A DNA stretch of 64,000 nucleotides. It comes from an uncultured archaeon. GTDB taxonomy: Archaea; Nanobdellota; Nanobdellia; Woesearchaeales; UBA9642. A model generated the notes under the pieces. The model saw only the letters and a list, made by a program, of their open reading frames with translations. It searched no databases and had not been told where the DNA came from. Position numbers and translations under genes: made by a program. The DNA lies in assembly GCA_963777125.1 (NCBI GenBank), contig CAVZPN010000024.1, positions 6,596 through 70,595 of the forward strand, in the 5' to 3' direction. This document shows, piece after piece, positions 4,984 through 59,250 of this stretch; the first letter of the stretch is position 1, and each line of letters begins with the position of its first letter.

Positions 4984-6726
4984 TCATTTAGATACTTTGT
5001 CTTTAAAATCTGCCTTAGAAAATATTGCTTCAATCCCGAAGTTTTTACAAGCAAGCTCATATTTTTCTAAAAATAAATGTGGTGGCGTTAAAGATAACTT
5101 CTGAATAAAATTATTTATAATAGTAGAAACTTTATCATTATCAGCGGCCAAAACATAAGTTGTGCCTGATAATAAATCAGCTATCATATCATTAGATAAA
5201 ATATTTGAAAATTGAATGTTAGTTTTAGAGCGATAACTTTTCTTAGTATATGAAAATTGTCCACGAGTAGAATCTAAAAAAATCATCGTAATCATCATCG
5301 TTCCAATACGATGCAATATTCCTTTATCATAAGAATCAGTAACACTAGTAGATGAGATATCTTTATCATTTACTAATTTCACAAAATCCGTATTATTTGA
5401 TGAAGTAGAGATAAAAGAATAAGTTAATTCTATTGTAGAATAAGAGCCTGTAGTATTAATTACAGTAAATAATTTAGATATTGTGGCAAAACCTTCTGCT
5501 CTACAATGAAATAATATTTGTGCCAATAATTTAGTTCTAAGTGAAGGATCTTTTCCAGAAATCTTCACAGCAACACTACTTAAATCATCCTTATTTACCA
5601 AATAATTCTTTGAAGCAGCAACTAAAATATCTTTAGAACGATTATTGAGCATATAATCTTTTGAATGAAATAACTCATGTAAAATAGTCTTATAAGTATT
5701 ACTATCTTCAGATAATATTAATTGATTAAATTCTAATACTCTTAATAATTCTGGAGTTAAAATTATCTGTATAAATATTTCTTTAAAATCAGATTTATCT
5801 TCATAAGAACCTAACCAATTAGTATCGTAATTTAATTCTATATTTATTCTTTTAACATCAGCTTTAACATTTCCTAAATTACTTTCTAAAACTTTTAAAA
5901 ACGTATTTTTTAATATTTCTAAAGATCTTCTCTCCATTTGTCTTGCAGTCATATTTTTTATTATTAACAAATCTTTCTCTTCATTTTTACACTGTTTTAA
6001 AAATAAATTACAATCGGCCCTAATATACTCTTCCAAAATTCTTGTTTCTTCTCCAAATGAAAATTTAAATTGTGTTTTAGAAAAATCTATCTTATTAGTG
6101 AAACGTAATAATACGCGACTATTATTCAATTCTTTCCATAGATCTATTTTGTATATATAAGAAAACCCTAAAATATCAGAAACCTTTTTTTCGGATTTGG
6201 ATTCTTTTATAATTTTAATATCATTATTAATTCTAATTAAAATATCTTCCAAAAAAGCATTCATATCTGCGTGATTACGAATAAGAGCACTTACTTTATT
6301 AGTGAAATTAATGTACAAATTAACGTCATATAATCCTAAACTACGAACTAGTATAATAACAAAAGTGTGATTATTTACAAAATTAAATGCTTCATCTATA
6401 TCATTAATTAAAGCAGTAATATTAGAGCTTAATTCTTCTATAATATGCAAAATTATATCCTTTTTTGCAAGATCAACACTTTTTTGTAAGTTATCTGTTT
6501 TATAGATTATTTCATTCATAGAATTCTTCAAAGAAACAATATTACCGCTATTTAATTCTATTAAACGTGTTTTCTGCTCTAATAAATTAGCACTAACTTC
6601 TAACTTTTTTATAATATTTTCTAATTCTTCATAAAAAGATATTATTGAATATAATTCTAAAATAAACTTTTTATTAAAAGGTATTACTTTAGATTCAACA
6701 AATAAAACGTCTTTATATATGCCCAT
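4984..6726 (-). CDS. large hypothetical protein (580 aa), predicted helical or coiled-coil
   Basis: Long uninterrupted ORF with no recognisable catalytic motif. Confidence 0.5.
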   Translation of the reverse strand: MGIYKDVLFVESKVIPFNKKFILELYSIISFYEELENIIKKLEVSANLLEQKTRLIELNSGNIVSLKNSMNEIIYKTDNLQKSVDLAKKDIILHIIEELSSNITALINDIDEAFNFVNNHTFVIILVRSLGLYDVNLYINFTNKVSALIRNHADMNAFLEDILIRINNDIKIIKESKSEKKVSDILGFSYIYKIDLWKELNNSRVLLRFTNKIDFSKTQFKFSFGEETRILEEYIRADCNLFLKQCKNEEKDLLIIKNMTARQMERRSLEILKNTFLKVLESNLGNVKADVKRINIELNYDTNWLGSYEDKSDFKEIFIQIILTPELLRVLEFNQLILSEDSNTYKTILHELFHSKDYMLNNRSKDILVAASKNYLVNKDDLSSVAVKISGKDPSLRTKLLAQILFHCRAEGFATISKLFTVINTTGSYSTIELTYSFISTSSNNTDFVKLVNDKDISSTSVTDSYDKGILHRIGTMMITMIFLDSTRGQFSYTKKSYRSKTNIQFSNILSNDMIADLLSGTTYVLAADNDKVSTIINNFIQKLSLTPPHLFLEKYELACKNFGIEAIFSKADFKDKVSK

Positions 6727-6793
6727 AGTAAATAATACAAATGAGAGTTTATAAAATTTAAGATTATAATACTAAAATATCATTAAAACAAAT

Positions 6794-7426
6794 TTAAAAT
6801 TCGTACTTTAAATGGTAAGCATCATTCCATTTAACCAAATTTAATTGCTTACCATCATAATTAAATTCGCTTATTGAAGTATTTTCGAGTACTAATTTGT
6901 AAGTATATTTTGGATCAGAATTAAGTATACCTCGAAGAGCACACTTAAATGCTACGCCATGACCAAATATTACAACATTATCGTAATTTTTAGATAAAAT
7001 ATCTTCGTAAATATATTTTAACATTCTTTCTTCAACTTGTTTTTGTGATTCGCCGTTTGGCGCAGAAAAATTCCAAGGATCAGAATCAATTAATTTCATA
7101 GTCTCATTATTATATATTTCTTCTCGATGTTTACCTGTCCAATCTCCTTGATCTAGTTCTAATAATTTATCAGATAATACTATATCTTCTAAAGTATATC
7201 CTATTTTAGCTAAAGAAATTTTAGCAGTATCAATTGCGCGAATAGCAGTAGATGAATAAACCTTATCAAATTGTAATTTTTCTTTTAATAGATATTTACC
7301 TAATAATTCAGCTTGATTTTTACCATATTCAGTTAGTGGAGTGTAATTAGATTGTCCGCCAATTAAATGCCTATAATTAAGATTAATATCGCTTTCTCCG
7401 TGTCTAATAAAATATACTCTAGTCAC
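6794..7426 (-). CDS. histidine phosphatase superfamily protein (phosphoglycerate mutase-like)
   Basis: N-terminal RHGESDIN motif, which is the catalytic RHG signature. Size about 210 aa. Overlaps the next gene by 8 nt. Confidence 0.75.
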   Translation of the reverse strand: MTRVYFIRHGESDINLNYRHLIGGQSNYTPLTEYGKNQAELLGKYLLKEKLQFDKVYSSTAIRAIDTAKISLAKIGYTLEDIVLSDKLLELDQGDWTGKHREEIYNNETMKLIDSDPWNFSAPNGESQKQVEERMLKYIYEDILSKNYDNVVIFGHGVAFKCALRGILNSDPKYTYKLVLENTSISEFNYDGKQLNLVKWNDAYHLKYEF

Positions 7427-10924: not shown

Positions 10925-11746
10925 ATGAAGTTGCGTAAAATTAAAGATTTTTTAAACAACATTTTCCATGGTGTTAAAGGCAGTGCAATATTCTTTATGC
11001 TAGGAGTAATATTTTTCGCATTCTGGAAATTAATATATATTATTACATCTAAAGATTTACTATTATCCAAATATTTAATCTCAACAGTAATGGGCAGTCT
11101 CATAATTATAGGATTTATCTATGGAGTAATAGCATATAAAAAGAAAAATCATCATTATAAAATCTATACTATGACGGGTAAAAATTTTATAATTAACTTA
11201 ATATTAACAATAATATTTACAGGATATTTCTGGTATGTATTGAGAAATAAAGTCATTCCATCAAATACCATATACTTATTCTTCTTAGGAGCATTTATCT
11301 TATTTTATGCGTTCAGTGCATTAATCAGTAACATACATCATCATGTAACTAAAAAACAACATAAAAAAATAAAGAAAAGCACAATATTTTTTGCAGTAAT
11401 ATTTAATCCAATATTTATATTAATATATCTGTGGTTATTTAGCATGGTAGTATATAACTCAGTATATGTTCCTTGCGGTGTTAGTGTTATAGGAATAGAT
11501 AAGAATGTATACACAAGTAATACTAGAAATCTTGGCATAACAGCTAATGAACGAATAATTCTTATAGATAATATAGAAATAAATTCATTACAAGACGTTA
11601 GAGATTACATGGCAAGTCTTGAATCGACAAAAGAAGTGACTGTTGAAACGACTAAAAGCATATATTTAGTTAAAACATATCAAGTAGATAATAGAAGATA
11701 TATGGGACTATTACTAAAAGAGCAAGTATGTGCTAGAGAATATTAA
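10925..11746 (+). CDS. polytopic membrane protein with C-terminal PDZ-like domain
   Basis: Multiple TM helices. C-terminal GVSVIGIDKNVYTSNTRNLGITANERIILIDNIEINSLQDVRDYM resembles a PDZ fold. SD gagggtg lies upstream of the ATG. Confidence 0.5.
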   Translation: MKLRKIKDFLNNIFHGVKGSAIFFMLGVIFFAFWKLIYIITSKDLLLSKYLISTVMGSLIIIGFIYGVIAYKKKNHHYKIYTMTGKNFIINLILTIIFTGYFWYVLRNKVIPSNTIYLFFLGAFILFYAFSALISNIHHHVTKKQHKKIKKSTIFFAVIFNPIFILIYLWLFSMVVYNSVYVPCGVSVIGIDKNVYTSNTRNLGITANERIILIDNIEINSLQDVRDYMASLESTKEVTVETTKSIYLVKTYQVDNRRYMGLLLKEQVCAREY

Positions 11747-11754
11747 TAATTTCC

Positions 11755-12618
11755 TTATTTATTAATTATTGTGCGTTTACCTTTAAAACTTATACAAGGA
11801 ATGTCTTTAGCCCTATTTTCTAAAGGAACAAATAACTTATACCTCGTTGGATCTAAATTAATATATTTTTCCCCTAATTTAATACCAACCCACATATAAC
11901 TTTCTAAACTATTATTTTTATTAACACGATTACCTAGGCATATTCCTGCATTAAAGCGATAATAAGTTAATATGGAATACAATGCTAAACTCAAATCATT
12001 ACTATCACCTAATTTACCATTAGTTAATTGTTCAAGATCAACATATGAAGGACTTAATTTTCCCGTTCGCATATGTTTTACTGATAAATTATATATTTTT
12101 CTTAATCTTTCGTCTTGAGAAGACTCAGTAGCATTTATAGAATCTAAAGAAAATACTAGTTCTTTTAAAGGAATAAATTTAGGTATAATATTATCACAAG
12201 AAGTATTAGCTACATAATAAAGCTGTTTAAAATTTTGCATAAGATTCATATTAATAGTATTTTCAAGCAATCTAAATGAATTAGCATCAAATGACCAAGT
12301 ATTAACATGTTCTAAACTATCTATAAGTCTAACATAATTTAAATATTTTGGCGTTAAATAATTACGATTAAGTTTATTTAAAACGAAGGAAGAAATACCT
12401 TTTTCATTTTCCATAAAACATGAATCAATAGAATTATAAATGCTTGGCCAAGGAGCATCATTTTTACGTTTGGAAATACTATCAGAAACTTCTCTTGTAG
12501 AATAACTATTGTTTATATTAGAAGGAATGCTTTTATTAAAATTATCAGCATACATATTACTAGTTAAAAATGTTAAGGCAGTAACAAAATACAACTTAGA
12601 TAAAGAGGATAACCCCAT
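11755..12618 (-). CDS. secreted transglutaminase-like (papain-fold) protein, predicted catalytically inactive paralog
   Basis: Signal peptide. C-terminal core aligns with the neighbouring paralog (YSILTYYRFNAGICLG...YMWVGIKLGEKYINLDPT). Leu and Met/Tyr occupy the positions of the catalytic Cys and His. Confidence 0.5.
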   Translation of the reverse strand: MGLSSLSKLYFVTALTFLTSNMYADNFNKSIPSNINNSYSTREVSDSISKRKNDAPWPSIYNSIDSCFMENEKGISSFVLNKLNRNYLTPKYLNYVRLIDSLEHVNTWSFDANSFRLLENTINMNLMQNFKQLYYVANTSCDNIIPKFIPLKELVFSLDSINATESSQDERLRKIYNLSVKHMRTGKLSPSYVDLEQLTNGKLGDSNDLSLALYSILTYYRFNAGICLGNRVNKNNSLESYMWVGIKLGEKYINLDPTRYKLFVPLENRAKDIPCISFKGKRTIINK

Positions 12619-12816
12619 AGCAAAGATAAAAACAAATATATTTAAAAATATTACTATTCATGATTAAAACAACAGTCGCAAATAAGCGCAGTTAATCATT
12701 ATTAACACAAAGAAATTCAAGGTATAATACTTCTTGCAAGAAAAAGTCATATAAATTTTTTTAATACGACATTAGTCAAGAGTTTAATATTAAGCAAAGG
12801 AAAAAAAAACAATATC

Positions 12817-13695
12817 TTAACGCACAGTAATTTTGCGCTTTACTCCAATATATTCATCCTTTACAGTATAACGTTTAATATCTTTACACCTATTTTCTAA
12901 CGGCACAAAAAAAGGATAATAAGTAGGATCTAAATCAATATATCCGTCATCTAAATTTACGCCAATCCAGGCATGATATATTACTTTTTTCCCAGAATTA
13001 TTAATTTGTTTTCCAAAACACATAACAGCATCAAATCCATAATAAGTTAAAATAGAATAAAATGCAGGAGCAACAGCATTACATTTACCTAATTGACCAC
13101 TGACCAGACTATTAATATCCACATCGTCATTTGCATCTTTATCTACACTAATTTTAGTATTCAAACAATTATACATTTTTCGTAATTTCTCTGAAAGATC
13201 TAACTTATCAACAGATATAGAATCTAAAGAAGATAATAAATATTTTAATGAAACAACTTCATTTTTTAAATCAGTTCTCGAAATAGACTCAACATTCGAA
13301 ATGAGTTGAAAATTACGTATAGCAGTATCTACAAGTTCATTACACGATTGTTCTATTAAAGAATCGGGTAGCAAGCCCCAAATACCAACATTTTCTAAAC
13401 TATCAACTCTTCTAAAATATTCTAAATAATCGTCTTTTTTGTAACGAGAATTATCAACATTATTCAAAAATCTCTCAGATATGCCTCCTTTTCGTATAAC
13501 AAAACTTCGAGCGGAAGAATCATATATCTTAGGCCAACAAATTATTTGTTGATTCTTATCAGTAGAACCACTTTGAGAAGTATTTTGAGCATTAGCATTA
13601 ATAGTAGCTATAGATACAGATGAAACAGTTAATAATGCAGCAAGAGATAAATTAGATAAATACGATAAACTCATTAAGTATAGAAAAATAAACAT
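12817..13695 (-). CDS. secreted transglutaminase-like cysteine peptidase-fold protein
   Basis: Signal peptide. GKCNAVAPAFYSILTYYGFDAVMCFG matches the G-x-C...A..F..L...G(I/V)PAR core. YHAWIGVNL...YIDLDPT matches the H-x-W and D-P-T motifs, giving a Cys-His-Asp triad. Confidence 0.55.
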   Translation of the reverse strand: MFIFLYLMSLSYLSNLSLAALLTVSSVSIATINANAQNTSQSGSTDKNQQIICWPKIYDSSARSFVIRKGGISERFLNNVDNSRYKKDDYLEYFRRVDSLENVGIWGLLPDSLIEQSCNELVDTAIRNFQLISNVESISRTDLKNEVVSLKYLLSSLDSISVDKLDLSEKLRKMYNCLNTKISVDKDANDDVDINSLVSGQLGKCNAVAPAFYSILTYYGFDAVMCFGKQINNSGKKVIYHAWIGVNLDDGYIDLDPTYYPFFVPLENRCKDIKRYTVKDEYIGVKRKITVR

Positions 13696-13751
13696 ATTTA
13701 AAAATGTTACTATGGCGGAGTACTAAAACAAACTTAATTTATTAAATGTAC

Positions 13752-15311
13752 CTATTCCTTCACACCATACATCTTATAATATTTATTTTTTAAATAAGTC
13801 GTAAAATCACTTACATCTAAATCTTTACCACACGCATTTCTTATTATTTCTTTTGATGTTTTACTTGCAGCATACTGATGTACATGTTCTTTTAGCCAGC
13901 CTCGAATAAAAGTAAAATCTAATTTTTCTATATCTTTATCTATATCAGGATGTTCTTTTTTCATAGCATTATATAACATTACAGAATAAATACTTCCAAG
14001 AGCATAAGTTGGAAAATAACCTATATTACCTCCTGACCAATGTGAATCTTGTAACACACCTTTGGAAGGTTTATTTGGAGTTATTCCTAAATAATCTTGA
14101 TATTTTGCATTCCATACTTTCTCTAAATCCTCAACACGTATTTTATTTGCAAATAAATCTTTCTCTATTTCATAACGTATTATTACATGTAAACAATAAG
14201 TTAGTTCATCAGATTCTATTCTAACTAAAGATGGTTGTGCAATATTTATTGATTTATAAAATTGTGTCAAAGGTACTTTTTTTAATTGAGGAAACTTGGA
14301 TACATAATAAGTATAATATCCTTCCCAAAAGTTTTCTGATTTACAAACAACATTTTCCCAAAATCTAGATTGTGACTCATGTAATGCTAAACTTAATGAA
14401 CCACCACCCACGAGTATAGTATTATGCATTTTTGTATCAAAACTAGACTCGTATAATGCGTGACCAGATTCATGAACTGTACTTCCAAAACTAAAAAAAG
14501 GATCATCTCGTACAGCAGTTGTTATTCTAATATCATCACTACTAATGGTTGCCATAAATGGGTGTACTGTCTTTGCAAGCATATACCTATCAGTATCAAC
14601 TAATATCTTTTTAGCAATATCAGCCGATATTTCTAATTGAGTTTCTTTTGAAAATACTCCAAATGATTCAAGTTTTTTATTATTAATAGAAACATAATTA
14701 GGCGAAGATTTAATCTTAGATAATATTTCTAAAATATCTTTTTTTAATTTTACAAACACAGTATCAATATCTTTGATAGTAATTCCGCGTTCATAATCGT
14801 CAAGAAAAATATTATAAGGATTAGCTTTTGCATCAATATACTTAGCTTCTTTCTTTTTTAAATCAAATACTTTTTTTAGATGAGGCATAAATTCTGCATA
14901 CGATTCTTTGTTTCTTGCATTTACCCAAGCATTATGTGCAATAGATAAAGTCTTAGTATATTCTTCGACATGTTCTTTCGGAACGTTTAATTGTTTTTTT
15001 AATTTCCAATTATACAAATCAACTCTTGCTTTATCGAAAGTAGATAATTTTGCATAAATATTTTTTTGTGATAAGTTACGTATTAATGAAACTGTTTTTT
15101 TTGAAGTTAATAACTCATGTATTTGAACACTAATTAAAGCTTCTTGATCAGCTCTTTGCTCAAATGCTTTTTTTGGTAAATTAACATCCTCATCCCACTG
15201 AAGTAATGCACTAATTCCCTGAAGTAAAGAAGATTCTTTTTCCAAAGCGTTAAATTCTGTTAATATTACTGACAAATTGTTGGCATTAGATTTTGTATTC
15301 ATAATTATCAC
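13752..15311 (-). CDS. M32 family metallocarboxypeptidase (carboxypeptidase Taq-like)
   Basis: HESGHALYE zinc-binding motif in an approximately 500 aa protein with the typical M32 length and layout. Confidence 0.85.
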   Translation of the reverse strand: MIIMNTKSNANNLSVILTEFNALEKESSLLQGISALLQWDEDVNLPKKAFEQRADQEALISVQIHELLTSKKTVSLIRNLSQKNIYAKLSTFDKARVDLYNWKLKKQLNVPKEHVEEYTKTLSIAHNAWVNARNKESYAEFMPHLKKVFDLKKKEAKYIDAKANPYNIFLDDYERGITIKDIDTVFVKLKKDILEILSKIKSSPNYVSINNKKLESFGVFSKETQLEISADIAKKILVDTDRYMLAKTVHPFMATISSDDIRITTAVRDDPFFSFGSTVHESGHALYESSFDTKMHNTILVGGGSLSLALHESQSRFWENVVCKSENFWEGYYTYYVSKFPQLKKVPLTQFYKSINIAQPSLVRIESDELTYCLHVIIRYEIEKDLFANKIRVEDLEKVWNAKYQDYLGITPNKPSKGVLQDSHWSGGNIGYFPTYALGSIYSVMLYNAMKKEHPDIDKDIEKLDFTFIRGWLKEHVHQYAASKTSKEIIRNACGKDLDVSDFTTYLKNKYYKMYGVKE

Positions 15312-21086: not shown

Positions 21087-21728
21087 TCAATCTCCTTCCA
21101 ATTCTAACTTAAATTCATCCAAAAAATTAAATAGAAAATCTGTTCTTCTTTTAGCTATTTCTCGTGCTGTTTTAGTATGCATTCTATTCCCAACTTTAAG
21201 CAATCTCTCGTAAAATAAATCTAAAGCAAAAGAAGTTGTATCAGATTTACGATATTCACAAAATGGATCATCTAAATTATAAAAAGGCCTTTTCATTTGT
21301 CCTGCTGAAGAATAAGTTCGCATAATAGAAATAGCGCCTGTTGCTTCAAGTCCATCAGCATCCTGTAATATTTTTGATTCCAAAGAATCAGGAATTATTC
21401 CTTTACTAAATGAACACTCTAAAATACATGACTTAATAGGAAGTATTTTATTTTTTGGAAAAGAATCAATAGTATACAATATCTGTTCTGCTTTTTCTGC
21501 ACTCTCTTCTTGCGATTTATATCTATCAGGATGATCTTTTGGATACACTATTAAATCATGAAATAATGCTGCTGGCGTTAGAATATATAAATCTCCACCT
21601 TCAATTTTAGAAATTTTTTCTACGTTTGATAAAACTCGAAATGCATGTGCAAAATCATGAGAAACATCATCTTTAGAAATAATATCTTTAGCAATTTGAA
21701 TTAAATATGTTCTTAACTCAGTATTCAT
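21087..21728 (-). CDS. HD-domain phosphohydrolase
   Basis: H...HD signature (HDFAHAFRV ... ALFHDL). Confidence 0.65.
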   Translation of the reverse strand: MNTELRTYLIQIAKDIISKDDVSHDFAHAFRVLSNVEKISKIEGGDLYILTPAALFHDLIVYPKDHPDRYKSQEESAEKAEQILYTIDSFPKNKILPIKSCILECSFSKGIIPDSLESKILQDADGLEATGAISIMRTYSSAGQMKRPFYNLDDPFCEYRKSDTTSFALDLFYERLLKVGNRMHTKTAREIAKRRTDFLFNFLDEFKLELEGD

Positions 21729-21858: not shown

Positions 21859-22722
21859 TTAAGAATATATTCTTTCAAACTTTAAAGTATAATCAGAAGA
21901 AAAATTCTTTAGTTTCATAAAATCTAACAATTTAGAAAATGACCCTAAAGTATTATTCGGAATAGATTCCATAATTATATTATTTTCAGGATTATGACTC
22001 CAAAAACTCTTTAATGCAGTATCAACTGGAAAAAGTTTATATCCATCTTTTGCTGGAACAAACACGTCTGTCCATACATGGCCTTCTTCATCAAGTATTT
22101 TTCCATCAACCCCTTTAGTAGGATAGCTTTTAGCATTACATAATGCACTAAAAAAAGTTTTAGATTCTTTACAATTACCAGAAAAATATCCTTGAGTCGC
22201 ATATTCATTAAACAATACAGATATTGGCTTTCCAATAGTATTTAACTCAGGCAACTGATGTTTACGAACAAAACCATAAAAAGTATATAATATTTTAATA
22301 GTACTTTTTTCTGTTCCTACAAGTTTATTTGCTAAATCACAAATTTCCTTGGGTGCTTTTTCCAAGAAATATTCTTGTATTGCAGGAGAAATATTATTTA
22401 AATGATTTATTGATAGAACATTATCTAAAGTATTAACATATTTTGTTTCAAAAATATATTTTCCTTTTTCTTTTAAAACTAAATTTTCTTCACAGAATAT
22501 TGCAGGATACAAGCGCGTTAATATATGATCTAATTTGGTGCTAGTTAAAATTAAATTTCTCTCTGTTTTTAATGTGGCCCTAATATTGCCTTGCATAGGA
22601 ATAAAAAGCGTATCCTTTGGAAATACAAGTACTTCGTCGTTATAATTACAAAAAGTTTTAGAGTTAGATACGGCGTTAGATATAATATAATCTGCTGACA
22701 TAATATATAGATAAAATAACAT
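21859..22722 (-). CDS. cytoplasmic transglutaminase-like domain protein
   Basis: GNCKESKTFFSALCNAKSYPTKGV matches G-x-C...F..ALCRA.GIPAR. GHVWTDVFV and FPVDTA match the H-x-W and D-P-T motifs. No signal peptide. Confidence 0.55.
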   Translation of the reverse strand: MLFYLYIMSADYIISNAVSNSKTFCNYNDEVLVFPKDTLFIPMQGNIRATLKTERNLILTSTKLDHILTRLYPAIFCEENLVLKEKGKYIFETKYVNTLDNVLSINHLNNISPAIQEYFLEKAPKEICDLANKLVGTEKSTIKILYTFYGFVRKHQLPELNTIGKPISVLFNEYATQGYFSGNCKESKTFFSALCNAKSYPTKGVDGKILDEEGHVWTDVFVPAKDGYKLFPVDTALKSFWSHNPENNIIMESIPNNTLGSFSKLLDFMKLKNFSSDYTLKFERIYS

Positions 22723-22883
22723 ATTTATAAATATTACTATAATTAACTACTATAAAGTAATACTTAAATTCCTTTTATTAAAAACACATTAAATAATAGC
22801 ATAAAGAATAATTTAATATTCGCACTACCCACACAAGTCATCCTCACGTAGCCTATTTAAAGCAATCAGTAAACATTTTATAT

Positions 22884-45679: not shown

Positions 45680-45892
45680 TAAATAATTAAGACATAACTA
45701 GTATATATTTGTTAGGTATTATAAAATATAGCTACTAAAACAAAAAATCGTAAGCAATAATAAATCAATTTTATTAACTAAAACAATAGTAATATTTATA
45801 AAGATGAATATCAAGTTTGATAATATTATCTCGAGTATTACAAAGAGTATTACAAGAGCAGAATTATCTACATAAAAAAAGGCATATTCAAG

Positions 45893-47578
45893 GTGAACAG
45901 CATGACTCAAAGAAGAGGACAAAGTGCAGGTAATGCAGCAGCATTTGTAGCAATATTAACCGTATTAATAATTGTATACATATTATTCTTACCTCCAGAT
46001 ATAAGAACTGAATTATTAGGAGATAAAAATGGAATATTAAATGATTCTAGTACTAGCACAAATACTGAAATACTATTAAAACAAAATATTGGCAAAGTCA
46101 CCTACATCAATACTGCTGAAAAAACATACGATTTACCAACTGTTCGAATATATTCTCCAACAAGCGGTCAAGTTCTAAAAAGTATTCCGAGTTCTAATAT
46201 AAGATACGCACTTTTTGATACTGAAAAATCTAAATATACTCTTGAATTAAATATTGATAAAAGATCCACAGAAAATCTTGTTTTAGTATTTAATGTCATG
46301 GAACATACAGGACCATTAATTATTGCTCTTAATGGTAATGAAATATTTAATGGCGAAGTAAAAACAACTAATCCTAAACCAATAAAACTTGATTCTGGAT
46401 CATTACTTGAAAACAATATTATAACATTTAGTGTCCCATCCCCTGGTTTAAAATTTTGGACTGCTAATAAATACACTTTAGAAAATATACAAATTACTGG
46501 CGATGTAACTGACTATAGTAATTCTATGGCCATACAAAATTTCGTTATAAGTCAAGTCGAGAAAGAAAATCTTGAAAGTATAAAATTATTTTTTTATCCT
46601 GATTGTGATTTATCTGAAGCTGGAAGCTTAAGAATTGATTTAAACGGAAGAGCAATATATAATAGTGTAGCAGATTGTGGAACAAGAACATTTGCAACAT
46701 TAAATACCAACGATATAATTTCAGGCAGTAATGAATTAAGATTTTATAGTGCTAAAGGATCATACATGTTAGATAATATGTATATCAAAACTACAATGAC
46801 AAAACCAGCATATAAAACATACTTCTTTGACTTAAAAGATGAATATTTTACATTTAAAACAAAAACTAGTATGTGTGGAGAATATGATGGCACATGTCCT
46901 ATTGGTTGTGATGAAACAACTGATGCTGATTGCTGCTTTGATAGAAAAGGATATTGGTGCGCTCTACCATTATCAAACGTTAATGATAGATGTAGATTCT
47001 ATGTAGCAAGCGATGATTGTTCATTATGTAAAACAGGATATTATGATGACAGCGGAGATGCTCCGACTACTTGTGAAAAAAAATGCGGAGATAACAACGA
47101 TAAAATCTGTGATAGTACTTGCTCGCAACCAAATAAATATTACGATAAAGATTGCTGCTTTGCACAAAGCAAGGATAATTTCTGGTGTAAAGAAACACCA
47201 ATAACAGGAATTGCAGACAAATGTAAACCAGCAATAAATCCTAGTGAATGTGACTTATGTCCATCAGGATACATCAATAAAGATGGCTCAGAACCTAAAT
47301 CATGTACTACTACAAACTTTAATATTCAAGATGAAGATTACTTATTTTCAAGCAATTATGAATTGAAAATCGTAGTTAAATTTGTTGATAGTACAACACG
47401 TAAACGTGTAGACTTTAATATCAATGGTCATACATTTAGAATTGATACAACAAATGTTGAATATACTAAATTAATCGCAGACTACGCTACAACTGGAACT
47501 AACAGCATTGAAATAAAACCAGTAGATAAAGATGTGGATATTTCAGAAGTTAGAGTAGAATTAAGAAGAGTTAAGTAA
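45893..47578 (+). CDS. pilin-like surface protein with class III (type IV prepilin-like) signal peptide and large Cys-rich ectodomain
   Basis: Likely true start is the ATG at 45902 (MTQRRGQ|SAGNAAAFVAILTVLIIVYILFL). This gives a short basic leader, a G at the cleavage position and a hydrophobic stretch. Internal duplicated Cys motifs (CSLCKTGYYDDSGDAPTTC / CDLCPSGYINKDGSEPKSC and DADCCFDRKGYWC / DKDCCFAQSKDNFWC). SD aggtga upstream. Confidence 0.55.
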   Translation: MNSMTQRRGQSAGNAAAFVAILTVLIIVYILFLPPDIRTELLGDKNGILNDSSTSTNTEILLKQNIGKVTYINTAEKTYDLPTVRIYSPTSGQVLKSIPSSNIRYALFDTEKSKYTLELNIDKRSTENLVLVFNVMEHTGPLIIALNGNEIFNGEVKTTNPKPIKLDSGSLLENNIITFSVPSPGLKFWTANKYTLENIQITGDVTDYSNSMAIQNFVISQVEKENLESIKLFFYPDCDLSEAGSLRIDLNGRAIYNSVADCGTRTFATLNTNDIISGSNELRFYSAKGSYMLDNMYIKTTMTKPAYKTYFFDLKDEYFTFKTKTSMCGEYDGTCPIGCDETTDADCCFDRKGYWCALPLSNVNDRCRFYVASDDCSLCKTGYYDDSGDAPTTCEKKCGDNNDKICDSTCSQPNKYYDKDCCFAQSKDNFWCKETPITGIADKCKPAINPSECDLCPSGYINKDGSEPKSCTTTNFNIQDEDYLFSSNYELKIVVKFVDSTTRKRVDFNINGHTFRIDTTNVEYTKLIADYATTGTNSIEIKPVDKDVDISEVRVELRRVK

Positions 47579-47625
47579 AATTCTCTAGTAATGAGGTGTA
47601 AGCCTAAGGTGAGGCTAAAGTAAAT

Positions 47626-49182
47626 ATGGGAACAGATAAAGCCGATAAAGATACTGAGAATTCTAAAGAAACTAATAAAGTAGCTAACGCTGGTAAAAAA
47701 ACTGCTGATGCAATAAACGCAGCTGGCGACGCTACATTAAGAAGTTTACGTAATGCTGGAAAAGCAATTGGAGGAAGTGGCGATTCATCATCTAGTTCTA
47801 AATCAAGTAGCGGATCTAATGGTGCAATCGCAATATTATTTGTAATTTCATTATTTCTTCACATTCTTGATTCTATTACTAAATTTGATAGACCAGGATT
47901 TATGTTATTTTATTATATTGGTCTAATAATATTTGCTTTTTTCTTTATTTTTAATATGAAACTTAACCAAGAGGGTGAAAAACAATTATTAGTAGTTATT
48001 TTCATATCTTATTTATTGCCTTTTGCAATAAAATATTTACCAGATAACAGATGGATACTTGCAATTTCAGGAATACTATTTTTAATTCCACTATTACCAC
48101 TATATATTGGACTACAGGCACCTCAAGATTCATTTTTATATAAATTTACAAAATGGTATATTGTCTTTTGGATAATCATACTAGCATTTTATCTTGTAGC
48201 AACATTTGCACCGACACAAGTAAGTACAGCACAACTTAAAGGAAATGTATGGACAGGAGCATCATATGTTTTGGGAAATACTGGAAAAACAATAAGTACT
48301 GTTACAACATCAGCAAATAATGCTCTAGCACGTGCTATTGCGCAAGCAACTGGAGAACCATATGATGGTCAAGAAGAAAGCAGAGTTGGAATTTATGTTG
48401 AAAATGTTAAAGCACTAGAATCAGGATATAATACTAACTCGGATGTTTTTGTTGAAGCTAAAATTAAAGCAATAAATCTAAAAGAACCAGTTAGAGTTAC
48501 AACAATATGTTATATTCCTGCAGTTCGTCAAGGAATTACAAATCCAGCTATCTTACCTGAAGTTAGTGCAGATTATGAAAATATTATTGATTGTGAACTA
48601 GGAAAATTAACTGCAGGAAATCATGAAGTAAAAGTACGTGCAATATTCGAGTTTAAAAGTACATCAGATATTGAATACACTTTTGTTAGCACTAATATTA
48701 AAACTGATCAATATACTAAATTAAATATTGATCCTACAACAATTGCAACATATACAGGTGGACCAGTAGCTGTTGGTTTACCATCCATAAAACAACCATT
48801 ACGAATAGAATTAGATCCTGATAAAACTGATGCAATGACTTATCCATTTGGAGTTAGCTTACAAAATAAATGGCCGCAAGGAAAAATTATGAAAGGATTA
48901 CAGTATAAATTAAATACTCCAAAAGAAGTAAAATTAGTTGAATGTAGTAGAACACCTACTGAAGTAAAAGAACCTGATGTTGATGGAAGAAACATATACA
49001 TATTTAATATTGATACTACCAATGCTCAAGATGTATTTGATGCAGTTAGATGTAGAATGCAAATAAGTGACGCGAAAGGATTATTAGGTAATGATCTAAA
49101 AAGCGTAAAAACATTTGCTGCAGAAGCAACATACGAGTACTCAGTTGAAAGCTCTGCAAGTATTAATATTATTAAAAGTTAG
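47626..49182 (+). CDS. polytopic membrane protein whose extracellular C-terminal domain belongs to the locus-specific paralog family
   Basis: Ser-rich N-terminus and approximately 6 TM helices. Ectodomain has the family N-terminal block (VGIYVEN...NTNSDVFVEAKIKAINLKEPV) and a GGPVAVGLPSIKQP block. Confidence 0.5.
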   Translation: MGTDKADKDTENSKETNKVANAGKKTADAINAAGDATLRSLRNAGKAIGGSGDSSSSSKSSSGSNGAIAILFVISLFLHILDSITKFDRPGFMLFYYIGLIIFAFFFIFNMKLNQEGEKQLLVVIFISYLLPFAIKYLPDNRWILAISGILFLIPLLPLYIGLQAPQDSFLYKFTKWYIVFWIIILAFYLVATFAPTQVSTAQLKGNVWTGASYVLGNTGKTISTVTTSANNALARAIAQATGEPYDGQEESRVGIYVENVKALESGYNTNSDVFVEAKIKAINLKEPVRVTTICYIPAVRQGITNPAILPEVSADYENIIDCELGKLTAGNHEVKVRAIFEFKSTSDIEYTFVSTNIKTDQYTKLNIDPTTIATYTGGPVAVGLPSIKQPLRIELDPDKTDAMTYPFGVSLQNKWPQGKIMKGLQYKLNTPKEVKLVECSRTPTEVKEPDVDGRNIYIFNIDTTNAQDVFDAVRCRMQISDAKGLLGNDLKSVKTFAAEATYEYSVESSASINIIKS

Positions 49183-49195
49183 AATAATTTAACCA

Positions 49196-50671
49196 TTGAA
49201 AGGAACAGTTATGAAAATAAGTATTAAAAAAAATAATAGCGTATTAATGAGTATATTTATATTGCTTACAGTAATATTTTTAACAGGATGTCAGGGTAGT
49301 GGTACTACGGAAAAATATCGTATTGGAACTGAAGGATTAAACTTAGAATTTGCATCATCTAATGTTAAAAGTGTATACGAAAACGAAAACTTCGGAACAT
49401 CAATAATTATCAAAAATATTGGTAGTTATGATATTTTAGATCAGAGTAATCCCGCAATATTAAAAGTTAGTTTTGATGATTATAGATTAAAATTTACTAA
49501 TTCTAAAGAAAATGTTAAAGAACAACAAATGTTAATTAATGGTAAAAGCAAATATTATCCTAAAGGAGATGAAATAAACTCAGAATACTATTTTGAATCA
49601 TTAAAACTCACTGATTTGAGAGAAAAATCAACTACTGAAATTAATTATAACTTATGTTATCCATATAATACTGAAATAACCACAGTTACATGTATTGATA
49701 CAAAACTTGCTAATAAAGATCAAACTGCAGCAGCATGTGCAAGTGAAACATATAGCGGATCTCAAGGTCAAGGAGCACCAATTGTTATAACTAAAATCGT
49801 ACCAGAAATCATGTTGCAAACAGAATATGTACGTCCACAATTTAAAATATATATTGAAAATAAGGGACCTGGATATGTTAATAACGCAAATAGTTGCAAT
49901 GTTGCAGATATTAATGATAGATCATCTTCAGGAAGAGTTAACGTATACGCTACTCTTTCAGGAACTCCTTTAGAATGTGGTCCTGATAATTCAGCATCAC
50001 TAAAATTAGTTGATTCTGAATCATTTATTAGATGCTATCTTCCAAATAAAGAAAAAGGATATTCACGATTAGAAAAAAATTATTTAACTCCATTAACAGT
50101 TAGTATTGATTATACCTATACTGTAATTACTAAACAAGAAATAGAAATTAAAAGAGATGACACAATAGAACGTGTTGTAACAAAAGACTGTGATTCATAT
50201 CAAATATTAAATGAAAATAAAACATGTGTTGATAAATGCTTATATTGTACCACTCATCCAAATGAAGATGTATGTAAAGTAAATTTACCTTTTGCAGAAT
50301 TTGAATTTAAAGAAGGTTTTTCATGTAGTTGTACTCTTGATCAATGTAATAGCAGAAATAAAACAGGAAATTGTATTAAAGGATATTGCCCTGGTAGTTT
50401 GTATTGCTGTAATACTCCTGTTGTTTGTGATAAATATCAAATAGAATTTAAGGGAAAATGTATCAATAAATGCGATTACTGCAGAGATAACTGGACTACA
50501 AACCCTAATGATCCTATTTGTCTCTCTAAATATGATTTTACTAACGCAAAATGTGATTCAATTACTGCGACAACATGTGATTCATTAGCAAAAAATAATT
50601 CCTGCATAAAAGGATTTTGTGGAGGAACAGATTCAAATAAATATTGTGTAAATACCTTTCCACAAGTATAG
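49196..50671 (+). CDS. lipobox-containing (LTGC) surface protein, paralog family member with Cys-rich C-terminal repeats
   Basis: Signal peptide ending LTGCQGSG. Family N-terminal block (GTEGLNLEFASSNVKSVYENENFGTSIIIKNIG). GSQGQGAPIVITKI. Repeated CIKG(Y/F)C(P/G)G Cys motifs. Confidence 0.55.
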   Translation: MKGTVMKISIKKNNSVLMSIFILLTVIFLTGCQGSGTTEKYRIGTEGLNLEFASSNVKSVYENENFGTSIIIKNIGSYDILDQSNPAILKVSFDDYRLKFTNSKENVKEQQMLINGKSKYYPKGDEINSEYYFESLKLTDLREKSTTEINYNLCYPYNTEITTVTCIDTKLANKDQTAAACASETYSGSQGQGAPIVITKIVPEIMLQTEYVRPQFKIYIENKGPGYVNNANSCNVADINDRSSSGRVNVYATLSGTPLECGPDNSASLKLVDSESFIRCYLPNKEKGYSRLEKNYLTPLTVSIDYTYTVITKQEIEIKRDDTIERVVTKDCDSYQILNENKTCVDKCLYCTTHPNEDVCKVNLPFAEFEFKEGFSCSCTLDQCNSRNKTGNCIKGYCPGSLYCCNTPVVCDKYQIEFKGKCINKCDYCRDNWTTNPNDPICLSKYDFTNAKCDSITATTCDSLAKNNSCIKGFCGGTDSNKYCVNTFPQV

Positions 50672-50744
50672 ATTAAAAAAGCAGAATATATTATACTTAA
50701 AAAAAACATAATCTTTATATATTATACACACAGGAGTTAATAAA

Positions 50745-52046
50745 ATGGTATTCAAACTAAACAATAAAATATTCTTAATAAGCACCTTAGTAATTGTTTT
50801 AATTTTAATTACTGGATGCGGAAGCACTACAAGTAATGTTCAAAAAAAATATTACACAGGATATAACAGTTTAGAAATGAATTTTTTAAGCGATAGTCCA
50901 CCATCAATATTTTATTATGACAGTGAAGCTCATGATAGAGGGGACTATGCTGCAAATACTATACCAATACTTGTTCAAATACAAAATAAAGGTTCATCTG
51001 ACAGTTATGGTGCATTATTTATACATGGATTTGATCCAAATATAGTTGCTATTCAAGGATATACTTCAGGATTTCCAGGATATAATGGTCCAATTAGAGG
51101 AGCTAGTTCTTTTGGCGGATGGTACGGTAACAATAATAATTATGCAATTAACGCATTAAATGTTCCTATAGGTACAAATAGCTATAGTTTAAATCTTCAA
51201 AAAGTCAATGGCCAAACAGGAATATCTTTTTCATCATTTGGATCTCGTTCACAATTATTCGGATCACTCGGATTCTCTAAGACATCACAAGTAGGAACTG
51301 GCTATACTGGAATAAATGTTGGTGTAGTACAAAATCGTGTTGGCTCAGTATTAAATCCTATAACTCGAGGAATGTTTAATCAATATGGTTGGAATGGTTG
51401 GTTAAAAGAACTTGAATTAGAGGGTAGAAATTCTGAAAATCCTGCAGGCGGAATGGATGTTATAGAATTCCCTGCAACAATATTAACACTTCCTCCATCA
51501 CTAGAAGAATTTAGACAAAGAGTAATGGTTACATCATGTTTTGATTACGCAACACATTCATCAACAATGGTATGTATTGATCCAGAACCATACTCTAATG
51601 TTAAAAAATCTTGTTTAATAAATACTGTAAGCGGAGGCGCAGGTCAAGGAGCTCCTGTTGCGGTTACAAGTATTGAACAAAGACCTGGCAAGGGCAGAAC
51701 TACATTTATTATAAATATTAGACACAATAAACAAGGAACATACGATGAATTATATGATTACTTTAATTTATACAAATGTGATCCAGCATCTGGCGCAACT
51801 GTAAAAACAAATGATAAAAACATTGTATATGTTGGATATGTGTACTTATCTCAATATGATATAACAATGGATTGTATGCCTGATCAAATGATTAGACTTG
51901 ATGATTCGGGTTCAGGTCAGATAACATGTTCAATAACTTTCCCAGAAGGAATGGCAAGTAGCGCATATCAAGCACCGCTTGAAGTAGAATTATGGTATGG
52001 TTATTCGAAAACAATATACAAAGATATGATTATTAGAAGAATATAA
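50745..52046 (+). CDS. lipobox-containing (ITGC) surface protein, paralog family member
   Basis: Signal peptide ending ITGCGSTT. Family N-terminal block (TGYNSLEMNFLSDSPPS...IPILVQIQNKG) and GGAGQGAPVAVTSIEQ. Confidence 0.55.
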   Translation: MVFKLNNKIFLISTLVIVLILITGCGSTTSNVQKKYYTGYNSLEMNFLSDSPPSIFYYDSEAHDRGDYAANTIPILVQIQNKGSSDSYGALFIHGFDPNIVAIQGYTSGFPGYNGPIRGASSFGGWYGNNNNYAINALNVPIGTNSYSLNLQKVNGQTGISFSSFGSRSQLFGSLGFSKTSQVGTGYTGINVGVVQNRVGSVLNPITRGMFNQYGWNGWLKELELEGRNSENPAGGMDVIEFPATILTLPPSLEEFRQRVMVTSCFDYATHSSTMVCIDPEPYSNVKKSCLINTVSGGAGQGAPVAVTSIEQRPGKGRTTFIINIRHNKQGTYDELYDYFNLYKCDPASGATVKTNDKNIVYVGYVYLSQYDITMDCMPDQMIRLDDSGSGQITCSITFPEGMASSAYQAPLEVELWYGYSKTIYKDMIIRRI

Positions 52047-52104
52047 ATTAGTATAATAATAGTATAAACAAATATAATAATTAAATAAACCTAAAGGTGA
52101 TAAA

Positions 52105-53088
52105 ATGAATAAAGGCATAGTATTGGTAATGATTTTGGCTATAAGTTTGTTTTTAACTGGTTGCGGTAATACGGGCACAACAACCGGTAAAACATTTATT
52201 GGTGGAACAGAAGGATTAAAAACAAGTTTTCTTTCAGGAAATCCTCCAGCTGTAACAACAGACGGCGGAACTACACCATTTAGTATCGGCATAAAAATGG
52301 AAAATATGGGAGAAAGTAGTATTAAATCTAGCGACGGATATGTAGAAATTTGGGGAGCAGATGCTTCAACATATAGTTCTAAATATCCTGACTTTAAAAA
52401 AACATTTTCACAAGAAGCAACTTTTGGAGAAGAATTAAGTGGTGCTAAAATGAATTATGGTAACCAACTACACGGCGGAACCAGCACTCTTACATTTGAT
52501 GACTTAAAATATGTTCCTATAATCACTGGTGATAATCGTGAACAATTAATTAGAGCAAATGTTTGTTACAAATACTCAACACAAGCAACAGCACAAATTT
52601 GTGTAAAAAATAATATAGAACAAGCACTTAGTGGAAAAGAAATATGTACTGTTGAAGAAGAGAAAAATCCTCAAAATAGCGGCGCACCAATACATATTAC
52701 ATCATTAAAAGAATTCTATGGGGGTAATGGAAAAATAGGAATAACATTAACAATTGCTCATGTAGGAAATGGAGATGCATTTTTCAAAGATGATCAAATA
52801 AAATGCGTTGATAGCTTAAGCAACGGCGATAAAGGAAAAGTCAGAATAAAATTCAAAGACATACAATTAGGTGGAAAGAGTATTCCTGTAGTATGCCCTG
52901 GCGTTAGCGAAGATGGATATGTTAGATTGTATAGCGAAGGTGCAGGAAAAGAATCAACTAATGTTCAATGTACAATCGATGTTTCTGGCAATAAAAATGT
53001 TGTAGAGGTACCAATAGAAGCAGAATTAAGCTACGTATACTTACAACACATAGAAACTGGCTTAACAATACGACATGTAGTTCAATAA
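52105..53088 (+). CDS. lipobox-containing (LTGC) surface protein, paralog family member
   Basis: Signal peptide ending LTGCGNTG. Family N-terminal block (GGTEGLKTSFLSGNPPAV...FSIGIKMENMG) and NSGAPIHITSLKE. Confidence 0.55.
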   Translation: MNKGIVLVMILAISLFLTGCGNTGTTTGKTFIGGTEGLKTSFLSGNPPAVTTDGGTTPFSIGIKMENMGESSIKSSDGYVEIWGADASTYSSKYPDFKKTFSQEATFGEELSGAKMNYGNQLHGGTSTLTFDDLKYVPIITGDNREQLIRANVCYKYSTQATAQICVKNNIEQALSGKEICTVEEEKNPQNSGAPIHITSLKEFYGGNGKIGITLTIAHVGNGDAFFKDDQIKCVDSLSNGDKGKVRIKFKDIQLGGKSIPVVCPGVSEDGYVRLYSEGAGKESTNVQCTIDVSGNKNVVEVPIEAELSYVYLQHIETGLTIRHVVQ

Positions 53089-57839: not shown

Positions 57840-57931
57840 TTATATCCCCACACCACTCTTAACAGTCTAAATTCTAACAGGTCAATATCCTCTCAATCAT
57901 CTCAATGTAGCAATAATACCGCATAAACATA

Positions 57932-57990
57932 CAATATATACTTAATATATATTTAATATATACTTAATATATACTTAAATAAATATTACA
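57932..57990. repeat. approximately 11-nt tandem repeat (ATATACTTAAT)x3-4 upstream of the FlaI-like ATPase operon
   Basis: caatatatacttaatatatatttaatatatacttaatatatacttaaataaat. Confidence 0.4.
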
Positions 57991-59151
57991 TTACTTAGTT
58001 TTTTTAAACATTGAAATTAATTGTGATATCTTTCCTTTAATAGACATCTTTTTATTCTCAAATTCTTTAATTTTTGATTCAATATCTTTTAATTCTGATT
58101 TAATATGCACACTTGAAGTTAATAGAGTAAATGAAATAACTTTTGCCTTTAAAGCTTCGAGTTCTTTTGCTAAAGATAACTTATCACTTTCAATTTCTGT
58201 AATTAATTTTTCAATAGTAATGTTTTTGGAAAAAAAGCCTTCAAAACCCTTATGTACTTTATCACTTAATGCTGAATGTGCATTAATACTTTCTTTTTGC
58301 GAACTTAATTCTTTCTCTATTTGTGCTTGAGTTTTAAAAATCTTATCTTCGTTTGATTTTAAAGCAAGTATTTTTTTTGTTAATAAACTACTTTTTTTAT
58401 CTGAAATTTCCTGATCTAAATTATCTAAAGAAAGTTTATATTTGAGAATAGTTTTATTAGCATCATCAAATTTATTTTTATAATCTAAGATAACTTTATC
58501 GATATTTTTCAAAGATTCTTTCAAAGAAGTAACTGTTCGTTCATAATCATTACGTAATTTTACTAATTCTTCAATTTTTTTACCATATTGATCAACATTA
58601 GTTCTTTCTTTTGCAATTACATTATGTAATTCATCATATTTTTGTGATTCTAATTTTAATTTGTCTTGCGCTTCTTTAACAAAAGAATCATAATCAATTC
58701 TCTGTTTATCAATATCTTTGCCTAAATTCTTTCTTAAAGAATCATATCTATCGAGTTCAGTTAATTGAGTTTTTACTAAATTAATTTCCTCTTTAATATT
58801 GCTTTGAATTTTTGCAAATTCCGCTCTAATAGTCTCAAAATCGCTAGTTTCTTCTTGTAATGCGCTTAATGCAACATCGATTTTTCTTGCTAAAGCATCT
58901 TTTTCTGATGTTACTTCTTTAATATTTGTTAATACGTCTTCTTTGCCTATTTTTCGTTCAGAAATAAATATTTTAGAAAGATGATACTCAAGACTTACAA
59001 GTCCTTCCTCTTCTAGAAATTCAGCCCATTCTTGCACAACATTCTTACCTACACCTAAAGTTTTTGCAGCTGAATCTAGATCTAAGCGCTTTTTTTCGGA
59101 TACAAGTTCAACTAACTTATCCACACCAGTTGTAATGCTTCTTCTCACCAT
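57991..59151 (-). CDS. coiled-coil protein with N-terminal winged-helix-like domain (pilus-locus associated)
   Basis: N-terminal LDLDSAAKTLGVGKNVVQEWAEFLEEEGLVSLEY is HTH-like. Followed by approximately 300 aa of heptad-rich sequence. Confidence 0.45.
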   Translation of the reverse strand: MVRRSITTGVDKLVELVSEKKRLDLDSAAKTLGVGKNVVQEWAEFLEEEGLVSLEYHLSKIFISERKIGKEDVLTNIKEVTSEKDALARKIDVALSALQEETSDFETIRAEFAKIQSNIKEEINLVKTQLTELDRYDSLRKNLGKDIDKQRIDYDSFVKEAQDKLKLESQKYDELHNVIAKERTNVDQYGKKIEELVKLRNDYERTVTSLKESLKNIDKVILDYKNKFDDANKTILKYKLSLDNLDQEISDKKSSLLTKKILALKSNEDKIFKTQAQIEKELSSQKESINAHSALSDKVHKGFEGFFSKNITIEKLITEIESDKLSLAKELEALKAKVISFTLLTSSVHIKSELKDIESKIKEFENKKMSIKGKISQLISMFKKTK

Positions 59152-59250
59152 CTTTATAAACTAAATTCACCTTTACTTATATAATTTTGTTACAACTATT
59201 AAATTAACAAGCACAATGATGCTTAAATTAATACTTCAATCTACCTTAAG

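Follow-up and report, generated by a model that had tools for sequence, protein, structure and literature searches.

Tandem, probably exported transglutaminase-fold paralogs in a DPANN archaeon: a predicted thiol enzyme beside a probable non-catalytic copy

Proteins of the transglutaminase-like superfamily (Pfam PF01841, Peptidase_CA clan) carry, in an alpha+beta core, a catalytic Cys at the N-terminus of a helix and a His and an Asp on the strands that follow, within HxW and DP(T) motifs. Here we describe two adjacent genes for proteins of this superfamily in a 64,000-nucleotide (nt) stretch of DNA, hereafter the window, from an uncultured archaeon of the Woesearchaeales (assembly GCA_963777125.1, contig CAVZPN010000024.1, positions 6,596 to 70,595). 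One of the encoded proteins, P2, retains all three catalytic residues (C205/H241/D256), and the other, P1, has S206/Y241/D256 in their place. The reading that we favour, with a probability of roughly 0.65, is that these are exported tandem duplicates of a DPANN archaeon, of which P2 is a thiol enzyme and P1 a maintained non-catalytic paralog.

Several characterised proteins bear comparison with this pair. The best structural matches are streptococcal transglutaminase (TGase)-like proteins, namely Streptococcus pyogenes TglA (Protein Data Bank, PDB, entry 9crn) and the 'TGase' of entry 4xz7, which we take to be the S. suis SsTGase of Yu et al. 2015. SsTGase has been described as secreted (PMC13656463). 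These proteins are bacterial and 360-380 amino acids (aa) long, and their reported role against host neutrophil killing has no archaeal counterpart. LapG (4fgo and others) is likewise an exported Cys-His-Asp protease, with a core of similar size and a cell-surface protein as its substrate. LapD and LapA are its partners, and proteinases of this type depend on calcium to cleave a surface adhesin under LapD control; the taxa are not comparable with ours. PeiW and PeiP (MEROPS C71) are archaea-related Cys-His-Asp proteins of the transglutaminase fold that act extracellularly and cleave the epsilon-Ala-Lys isopeptide bond of pseudomurein. They are defined by four N-terminal pseudomurein-binding (PMB) motifs and a protease domain (PMC3210951). 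Transglutaminase folds that are catalytically dead and serve as binding or scaffold modules have also been described, in EPB42 (erythrocyte band 4.2), FBXO21 and the nucleotide-excision-repair scaffolds (PMC10318531). Like P1, EPB42, FBXO21 and the Rad4/XPC-type scaffolds have kept the fold and lost catalytic residues, but they are eukaryotic, intracellular and unrelated to P1 in sequence. P1 is a new instance of this known phenomenon.

The original prediction for this DNA had proposed a pair of secreted transglutaminase-like paralogs, one active and one dead, and both open reading frames (ORFs) were confirmed on the minus strand at exactly the coordinates it gave. By BLASTP, P1 and P2 share 37% identity over 246 aa (E 3e-46), which bears out their description as paralogs. 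Triad columns were read from P1 and P2 aligned with their closest relatives and with 74 family representatives. The triad predicted for P2 proved intact, with GKCNAV (Cys), YHAW (His) and DLDPT (Asp) all at conserved positions, and P2 scores 28.2 bits against PF01841 Transglut_core (gathering cut-off 23, E 2.5e-6). P1 aligns over its full length and, as predicted, has neither nucleophile nor general base, although the residues involved need correction. The Leu that had been placed at the Cys position reflects a register off by three residues, the aligned residue being Ser206 (GKLGD-S-ND); of the Met/Tyr proposed for the His position, Tyr is right (Tyr241, ES-Y-MW) and Met is not. An alignment of five sequences by MAFFT puts a one-residue gap at the P1 His position instead, and there is no His either way. 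P1 also differs at further strongly conserved core positions (G221R, D254N and W259R). We considered sequencing error as the source of the Ser and Tyr and rejected it, because two independent changes hit exactly the two key codons of a protein only 37% identical to its paralog. Pfam, which had been suggested as a check, placed P2 above the cut-off as expected; for P1 it returned nothing above threshold and no PF01841 match. The top hit of P1, a CEP76 peptidase-like domain (E 0.036), is also a papain-fold family. Membership of P1 in the superfamily follows from its identity to P2, and P1 scores E 2e-66 against a family hidden Markov model (HMM) that was itself built with P1 included. Signal peptides had been predicted for both proteins; each begins with a hydrophobic segment, behind which lies a linker of low complexity, and from this we infer that P1 and P2 are likely exported.

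P1 and P2 align end to end with proteins from other genomes, P1 lacking only the motif Cys and His, and together these sequences define a small family. HMMER was run exhaustively against 1.84 billion cluster representatives and retrieved 91 sequences at E<=1e-3, of which 68 reached E<=1e-10; their length is 215-330 aa in nearly every case. A profile built from the close clade, five of whose eight members match PF01841, picks up independent members at E 1e-50 to 1e-69. A word-indexed protein search gave four matches for P2, P1 itself alone for P1, and two for a 73-sequence profile; only three close relatives emerged in this way, two of them named 'Candidatus Woesearchaeota archaeon' proteins. 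The shared architecture begins with an export signal or, in many relatives, an anchor of the lipobox type; a linker then leads to a helical domain (motifs WPxxYD, GGIxExxLN, DSLE and LKxLLxSLDSI), and a transglutaminase/papain-fold core (GDCND ... HxW ... DLDPTWYxxFxPLExR) forms the C-terminal part. Compared with the PF01841 superfamily at large, the N-terminal helical domain and the conserved C-terminal PLExR tail are additions of this subfamily. The N-terminus is strongly hydrophobic in 54 of 74 representatives, usually after Lys or Arg, and a lipobox-like Cys occurs in 17, which suggests that the family is exported or membrane-anchored.

In a collection of species-representative genomes, full-length matches came from archaeal metagenome-assembled genomes (MAGs) only, classified as Nanoarchaeota, Woesearchaeota or simply 'archaeon'; matches restricted to the core came from Roizmanbacteria, Gottesmanbacteria, Omnitrophica, a gammaproteobacterium and Iainarchaeum. 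One family alignment (A5) led to 16 loci in this collection, and another (A2) to none there and to one distant locus in metagenome contigs. A pattern scan of viral contigs found no relative, and one member lies among ribosomal-protein, Alba, proteasome and tRNA-synthetase genes on a 323-kb Nanoarchaeota contig. A literature search on DPANN together with transglutaminase, and on TglA, returned nothing specific. Judged by these searches, the subfamily is rare and small within a known superfamily, and its full-length members come from DPANN archaea alone.

The triad is kept in 67 of the 76 aligned members, with column conservation of 91% for Cys (GDCND), 95% for His (HxW) and 99% for Asp; one of the remainder is a fragment and eight, including P1, are degenerate. 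A contig of only 5 kb (L023, 2-1423) carries two adjacent members that are both degenerate, one with GDAND/NHYW (Ala-His-Asp) and one with ADNND/SPYQW (Asn-Tyr-Asp). In the second, Tyr has taken the place of His, as in P1 but independently. Degenerate members on two other contigs (L022 and L024) have no paralog within their contigs, and the contigs of further degenerate members are too short for their context to be informative. The double loss and the lone copies indicate that a live/dead pair is not a fixed design of the family. The L022 member, P0033, is Ser-His-Asp. It belongs to a series of some 20 short ORFs on one strand of its contig (JGI 3300041075, 24.6 kb), almost without Pfam matches (weak BFN_dom and LysM only), a setting that resembles a mobile element or virus. 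The family profile also matches several stretches within giant ORFs, one of more than 3941 aa in a Woesearchaeota groundwater MAG (L012, 1-11823) and two others of 5324 aa (P0075) and 1422 aa (P0077), indicating that the domain is also embedded in very large DPANN proteins.

To place the fold we used an AlphaFold2 model of P1 from the 73-sequence alignment, which had a mean predicted local distance difference test (pLDDT) score of 87.4 and a predicted template modelling (pTM) score of 0.81, with residues 55-280 mostly above 90. The N-terminus forms a low-confidence helix and a linker; a helical N-terminal domain follows, and then a core of helix and β-sheet. A model of P2 from five sequences had a pLDDT of 51 and was set aside. 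By Foldseek against the PDB, the top 15 matches of the P1 model were all transglutaminase/papain-fold, headed by 9crn (E 6.7e-5) and 4xz7 (E 9e-4); further matches included LapG, PeiP, PeiW, a Cytophaga putative cysteine protease, arylamine N-acetyltransferases, vasohibins and CPR-C4. Query-normalised template modelling (TM) scores were 0.2-0.36, low because only the core superposes, and with 9crn and 4xz7 identity was 12-17% at a TM of about 0.3 and a root-mean-square deviation of about 16 Å over two domains. By sequence, the family profile matched 9crn at E 0.0027 over profile positions 55-228, with Cys and His in register. TglA is the sole transglutaminase-fold chain for which the profile match also covers the N-terminal helical region. 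LapG gave the highest target-normalised TM, 0.44-0.53; Pfam found no PF06035 (LapG-type) match in P1 or P2 at E<=10, and no partner genes of a LapG-type system were recognisable. The superfamily assignment is secure, and no characterised protein is close enough for its substrate to be transferred. Coordinates of the two genes and their features are collected in Table 1.

Table 1. Positions in the window of P2, P1 and their sequence features
Feature	Position	Strand	Basis
P2, exported transglutaminase-like protein (predicted), Cys-His-Asp intact, 285 aa from Met8	12817..13674	-	ORF, Pfam, promoter motif
P2 N-terminal hydrophobic export segment (predicted), MSLSYLSNLSLAALLTVSSVSIATINANA, followed by Q	13585..13674	-	Kyte-Doolittle maximum 2.03 over 15 aa, heuristic
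P2 predicted catalytic Cys, codon TGT, Cys205 (292-aa numbering) / Cys198 (285-aa numbering)	13081..13083	-	alignment to family GDCND
P2 predicted catalytic His, codon CAT, His241 / His234	12973..12975	-	HxW motif alignment
P2 predicted catalytic Asp, codon GAT, Asp256 / Asp249, in DLDPT	12928..12930	-	family alignment
Promoter-like motif upstream of P2, ATAGTAACATTTTTAAATATGTTT, BRE/TATA-like	13690..13713	-	three copies in window, conserved elsewhere
T9 run, likely archaeal oligo-T terminator	12801..12809	-	8 nt after P2 stop codon
P1, predicted non-catalytic paralog, 287 aa	11755..12618	-	ORF, homology to P2, family HMM, model
P1 N-terminal hydrophobic export segment (predicted), MGLSSLSKLYFVTALTFLTSNMYA	12547..12618	-	Kyte-Doolittle maximum 1.19, heuristic
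P1 Ser206, codon AGT, at Cys position (GDSND)	12001..12003	-	alignments; one base from TGT
P1 Tyr241, codon TAT, at His position (SYMW)	11896..11898	-	alignments; one base from CAT
P1 Asp256, codon GAT, in NLDPT, third triad residue kept	11851..11853	-	alignments
Promoter-like motif upstream of P1, exact copy of the same 24 nt	12634..12657	-	same spacing to ATG

Despite their divergence, P1 and P2 share an upstream element. The end of a 24-nt motif, ATAGTAAYATTTTTAAATATRTTT, lies 16 nt before the ATG of P1 and equally far before the Met8 ATG of P2, and its TATA-like core ends about 19 nt upstream of the latter. With up to three mismatches allowed, the window holds three copies against 0.02 expected, and the motif recurs at the same spacing upstream of paralogs in two other genomes (loci L001 and L003). 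The mechanical ORF of P2 reaches 13695 (292 aa), but the ATG there falls inside the motif; P2 most probably starts at 13674, its sequence from Met8 being identical to a 285-aa database protein (P0001). The motif resembles the archaeal B recognition element (BRE)/TATA element and is centred about 24-25 nt before the ATG, a distance from which P1 and P2 are probably transcribed as leaderless mRNAs. Oligo-T runs act as archaeal terminators, and that behind the P2 stop codon suggests that P2 and P1 are probably separate transcription units.

The third copy of the motif (22717-22740, minus strand, two mismatches, spacing as for P1 and P2) precedes a third transglutaminase-like gene at 21859-22701 on the minus strand. 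Its product, 280 aa from Met8, has no export signal and carries GNCKES, GHVWTDV and PVDTA; it scores 19.3 bits against PF01841, below the cut-off of 23, and E 4.8e-4 against the family by hhalign. An HD-domain gene (21087-21728) follows it. Exact copies of the 17-nt motif core occur in the window at the three transglutaminase-like genes only; a copy with one mismatch lies at 45789-45805 on the plus strand, about 90 nt upstream of a block (45893-53088) of four or five large ORFs (561, 518, 491, 433 and 327 aa), three of which were scanned with Pfam and gave no match. The genes sharing the motif may be a small co-regulated set, or simply those with the strongest promoters. At L001, the first member of the three-copy array (6332-7066; P0003, 244 aa) is annotated without an export segment and the motif was not found upstream of its called start; its open frame extends upstream to 6242, and the start may be mis-called.

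The setting of the pair is chromosomal. The window is uniformly AT-rich (GC content 25-31% throughout; we take the genome as 27%) and holds archaeal-type genes for a Hef-like helicase/ERCC4 nuclease, an archaeal PheRS beta subunit and a type IV ATPase. We take the source to be a DPANN archaeon of low GC content, closely related to a 'Candidatus Woesearchaeota' MAG. Housekeeping genes surround P1 and P2, a chromosomal and not a viral context, and the flanking genes are that of an M32 carboxypeptidase (13752..15311) and, convergent with the pair, that of a 273-aa membrane protein (10925..11746). A second assembly of the locus is base-identical and gives no population variation. The order M32 peptidase, paralog array, 273-aa membrane protein and 118/127-aa protein is common to two related genomes, L001/L002 and L003, and in L001 and L002 it extends to a PhoU-like gene and an inositol monophosphatase gene. 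We considered the M32 carboxypeptidase, the membrane protein and other neighbours as functional partners and rejected them, because the synteny does not extend beyond the closest genomes; family members further removed occur as single copies beside other genes. The membrane protein itself, encoded on the plus strand with its stop codon 8 bp from that of P1, spans the membrane several times, and its C-terminus gives a weak PDZ-like match (E 0.004); it is 85% identical in related genomes, far above the adjacent paralogs.

Set against these neighbours, the paralogs diverge quickly. The genes around them are 72-85% identical to their counterparts in L001 and L003 (the exception is the 118-aa protein, 47-48%), whereas the best counterparts of P2 are 46-51% identical and those of P1 37-42%. 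Copy number varies too, at 2, 2 and 3, and the arrays of L001 and L003 (three and two copies) have intact triads throughout. Fast divergence and variable copy number beside slowly evolving neighbours fit P1 and P2 being proteins of the cell surface or of an interface with a host or partner.

Is P1 maintained? Its 287 codons are uninterrupted at only 34-37% identity to the closest paralog; with random stop codons at about 8% for 27% GC, we calculate a chance expectation of about 1e-11 for an open frame of this length. It keeps 31 of 45 family-consensus positions, non-catalytic motifs included (the family median is 76%), and stays in register with the family along its whole length, apart from at most one indel of a single residue. 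Relative-rate tests by Tajima's method with nine outgroups gave about two changes unique to P1 for each unique to P2 (p 0.0004-0.08; for example 41 versus 15, and 56 versus 26), and the P1 branch is the longest of its clade. With an intact ORF, a conserved promoter motif of its own, and most consensus positions as well as the family fold retained, P1 is most probably a lineage-specific pseudo-enzyme that has been maintained.

These observations can be assembled into a mechanism. P1 and P2 would be tandem duplicates from a small family of exported proteins with a mass of about 28 kDa. As a predicted extracellular thiol enzyme, P2 would use its Cys thiolate, activated by the His and with the Asp orienting the latter, to attack a peptide, isopeptide or glutamine amide bond. 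The thioester acyl-enzyme so formed would be resolved by hydrolysis, as in a peptidase, isopeptidase or amidase, or by transfer, as in cross-linking; the data do not tell which. In P1, two changes of one base each would have removed the nucleophile (Cys to Ser) and the general base (His to Tyr). P1 would afterwards have evolved about twice as fast as P2, as a maintained non-catalytic paralog that may still bind something, by analogy with the dead folds described above.

Some observations weigh against this account. The remoteness of the fold matches (TM 0.25-0.36) means that they say nothing about substrate, and the confidence of the P1 model comes largely from the family alignment, which makes it weak evidence that P1 itself folds. 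The hydrophobic segment of P1 is weak (Table 1), below that of P2. No P1 ortholog was found in any collection searched, metagenome contigs included, and selection for the Ser/Tyr state can therefore not be demonstrated; the fast evolution of P1 could reflect weak constraint instead of an interface role. P1 could instead be a decaying relic, a recently inactivated duplicate without function and not yet disrupted: its lineage-specific changes are about twice those of P2, it stands without orthologs on the longest branch, further consensus residues around the active site have gone, and the export segment is weaker than that of P2. Against decay stand the uninterrupted frame at such low identity, the exact promoter motif, and the consensus positions and register that P1 has kept, and we consider a relic unlikely. 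With a Ser where the nucleophile would be, residual chemistry in P1 has a small chance, and P1 might even remain an enzyme, with Ser206 as nucleophile and another base. A Cys-to-Ser change keeps a potential nucleophile, P0033 offers a Ser-His-Asp precedent, and migrations of the active site are known in the transglutaminase-like superfamily (PMC10318531). With the His gone, adjoining consensus residues altered, and no conserved alternative His or Cys in the alignment, however, we regard this as very improbable.

The alternatives for P2 concern what it acts on. It could work on the cell's own surface, as a LapG-like processing protease by which large surface proteins of the cell are trimmed or released, or as a true transglutaminase that cross-links the envelope, as has been claimed for the streptococcal enzymes, with P1 as a regulator or competitor. 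The best fold and profile matches, 9crn and 4xz7, point this way, as do the best target-normalised TM (0.53, LapG) and the family-like domains inside the giant DPANN proteins of L012 and P0075. The similarities are all remote, however, PF06035 is not matched, and no neighbouring substrate gene is conserved beyond the closest relatives; action on the own surface is possible, with the odds against it. The original prediction had looked to a host or partner envelope instead, on which an enzyme and a binding module could act; the evidence speaks neither for nor against that general idea. In its specific form, P2 would be a pseudomurein-type isopeptidase of the PeiW/PeiP kind that opens the host envelope, and P1 its substrate-binding partner. 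These are exported proteins of the right fold, in an archaeon whose group is presumed to live on other cells, and PeiW and PeiP are among the fold matches (Foldseek ranks 8-21, rank 4 in a second search), with a profile E of 0.057 for PeiP chain 8z4f_B. Beyond the level of the superfamily the link did not hold up. The profile check proposed for it gave no Peptidase_C71 or PMB-repeat match in P1 or P2 even at E<=10 in Pfam, and Foldseek TM scores to PeiP and PeiW (0.25-0.29) fall below those of TglA, 4xz7 and LapG. PeiW and PeiP are prophage-encoded, in (pro)viruses of pseudomurein-walled methanogens, whereas P1 and P2 are chromosomal and viral contigs yielded nothing; elsewhere, degenerate members occur without a live neighbour. 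We find this reading decidedly improbable; at most, P2 may work on some isopeptide bond of an envelope. A predicted thiol enzyme, P2, beside a maintained non-catalytic P1 remains the account that we prefer.

Little is understood about the ways in which DPANN archaea fasten onto partner cells and draw material from them, and a predicted chemistry exists for very few of their surface proteins. The present family supplies a small, predicted exported and probably soluble thiol enzyme beside a natural dead paralog, a convenient pair for study. On present evidence the locus represents an ordinary duplication with active-site loss, in a single genome and within a very large, well-described superfamily; it is not a new kind of system, and its interest would rise only with a role in host contact. 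Such a role can be sketched, though we hold it as speculation with an outside chance of being correct. DPANN-specific, fast-diversifying exported thiol enzymes would cut or cross-link envelope proteins at the host contact during attachment, and the dead copies (8 of 76, with repeated origin) would serve as adhesins, decoys or binders that do not cleave. A small regulon sharing one promoter motif would then comprise both paralogs, the third, cytoplasmic gene at 21859-22701 and possibly the block from 45893.

Elsewhere in the window, a type II/IV secretion-family ATPase (765 aa) is encoded near a 1185-aa ORF without a Pfam match (55542-63827, minus strand), and these may be further surface or pilus-related genes.

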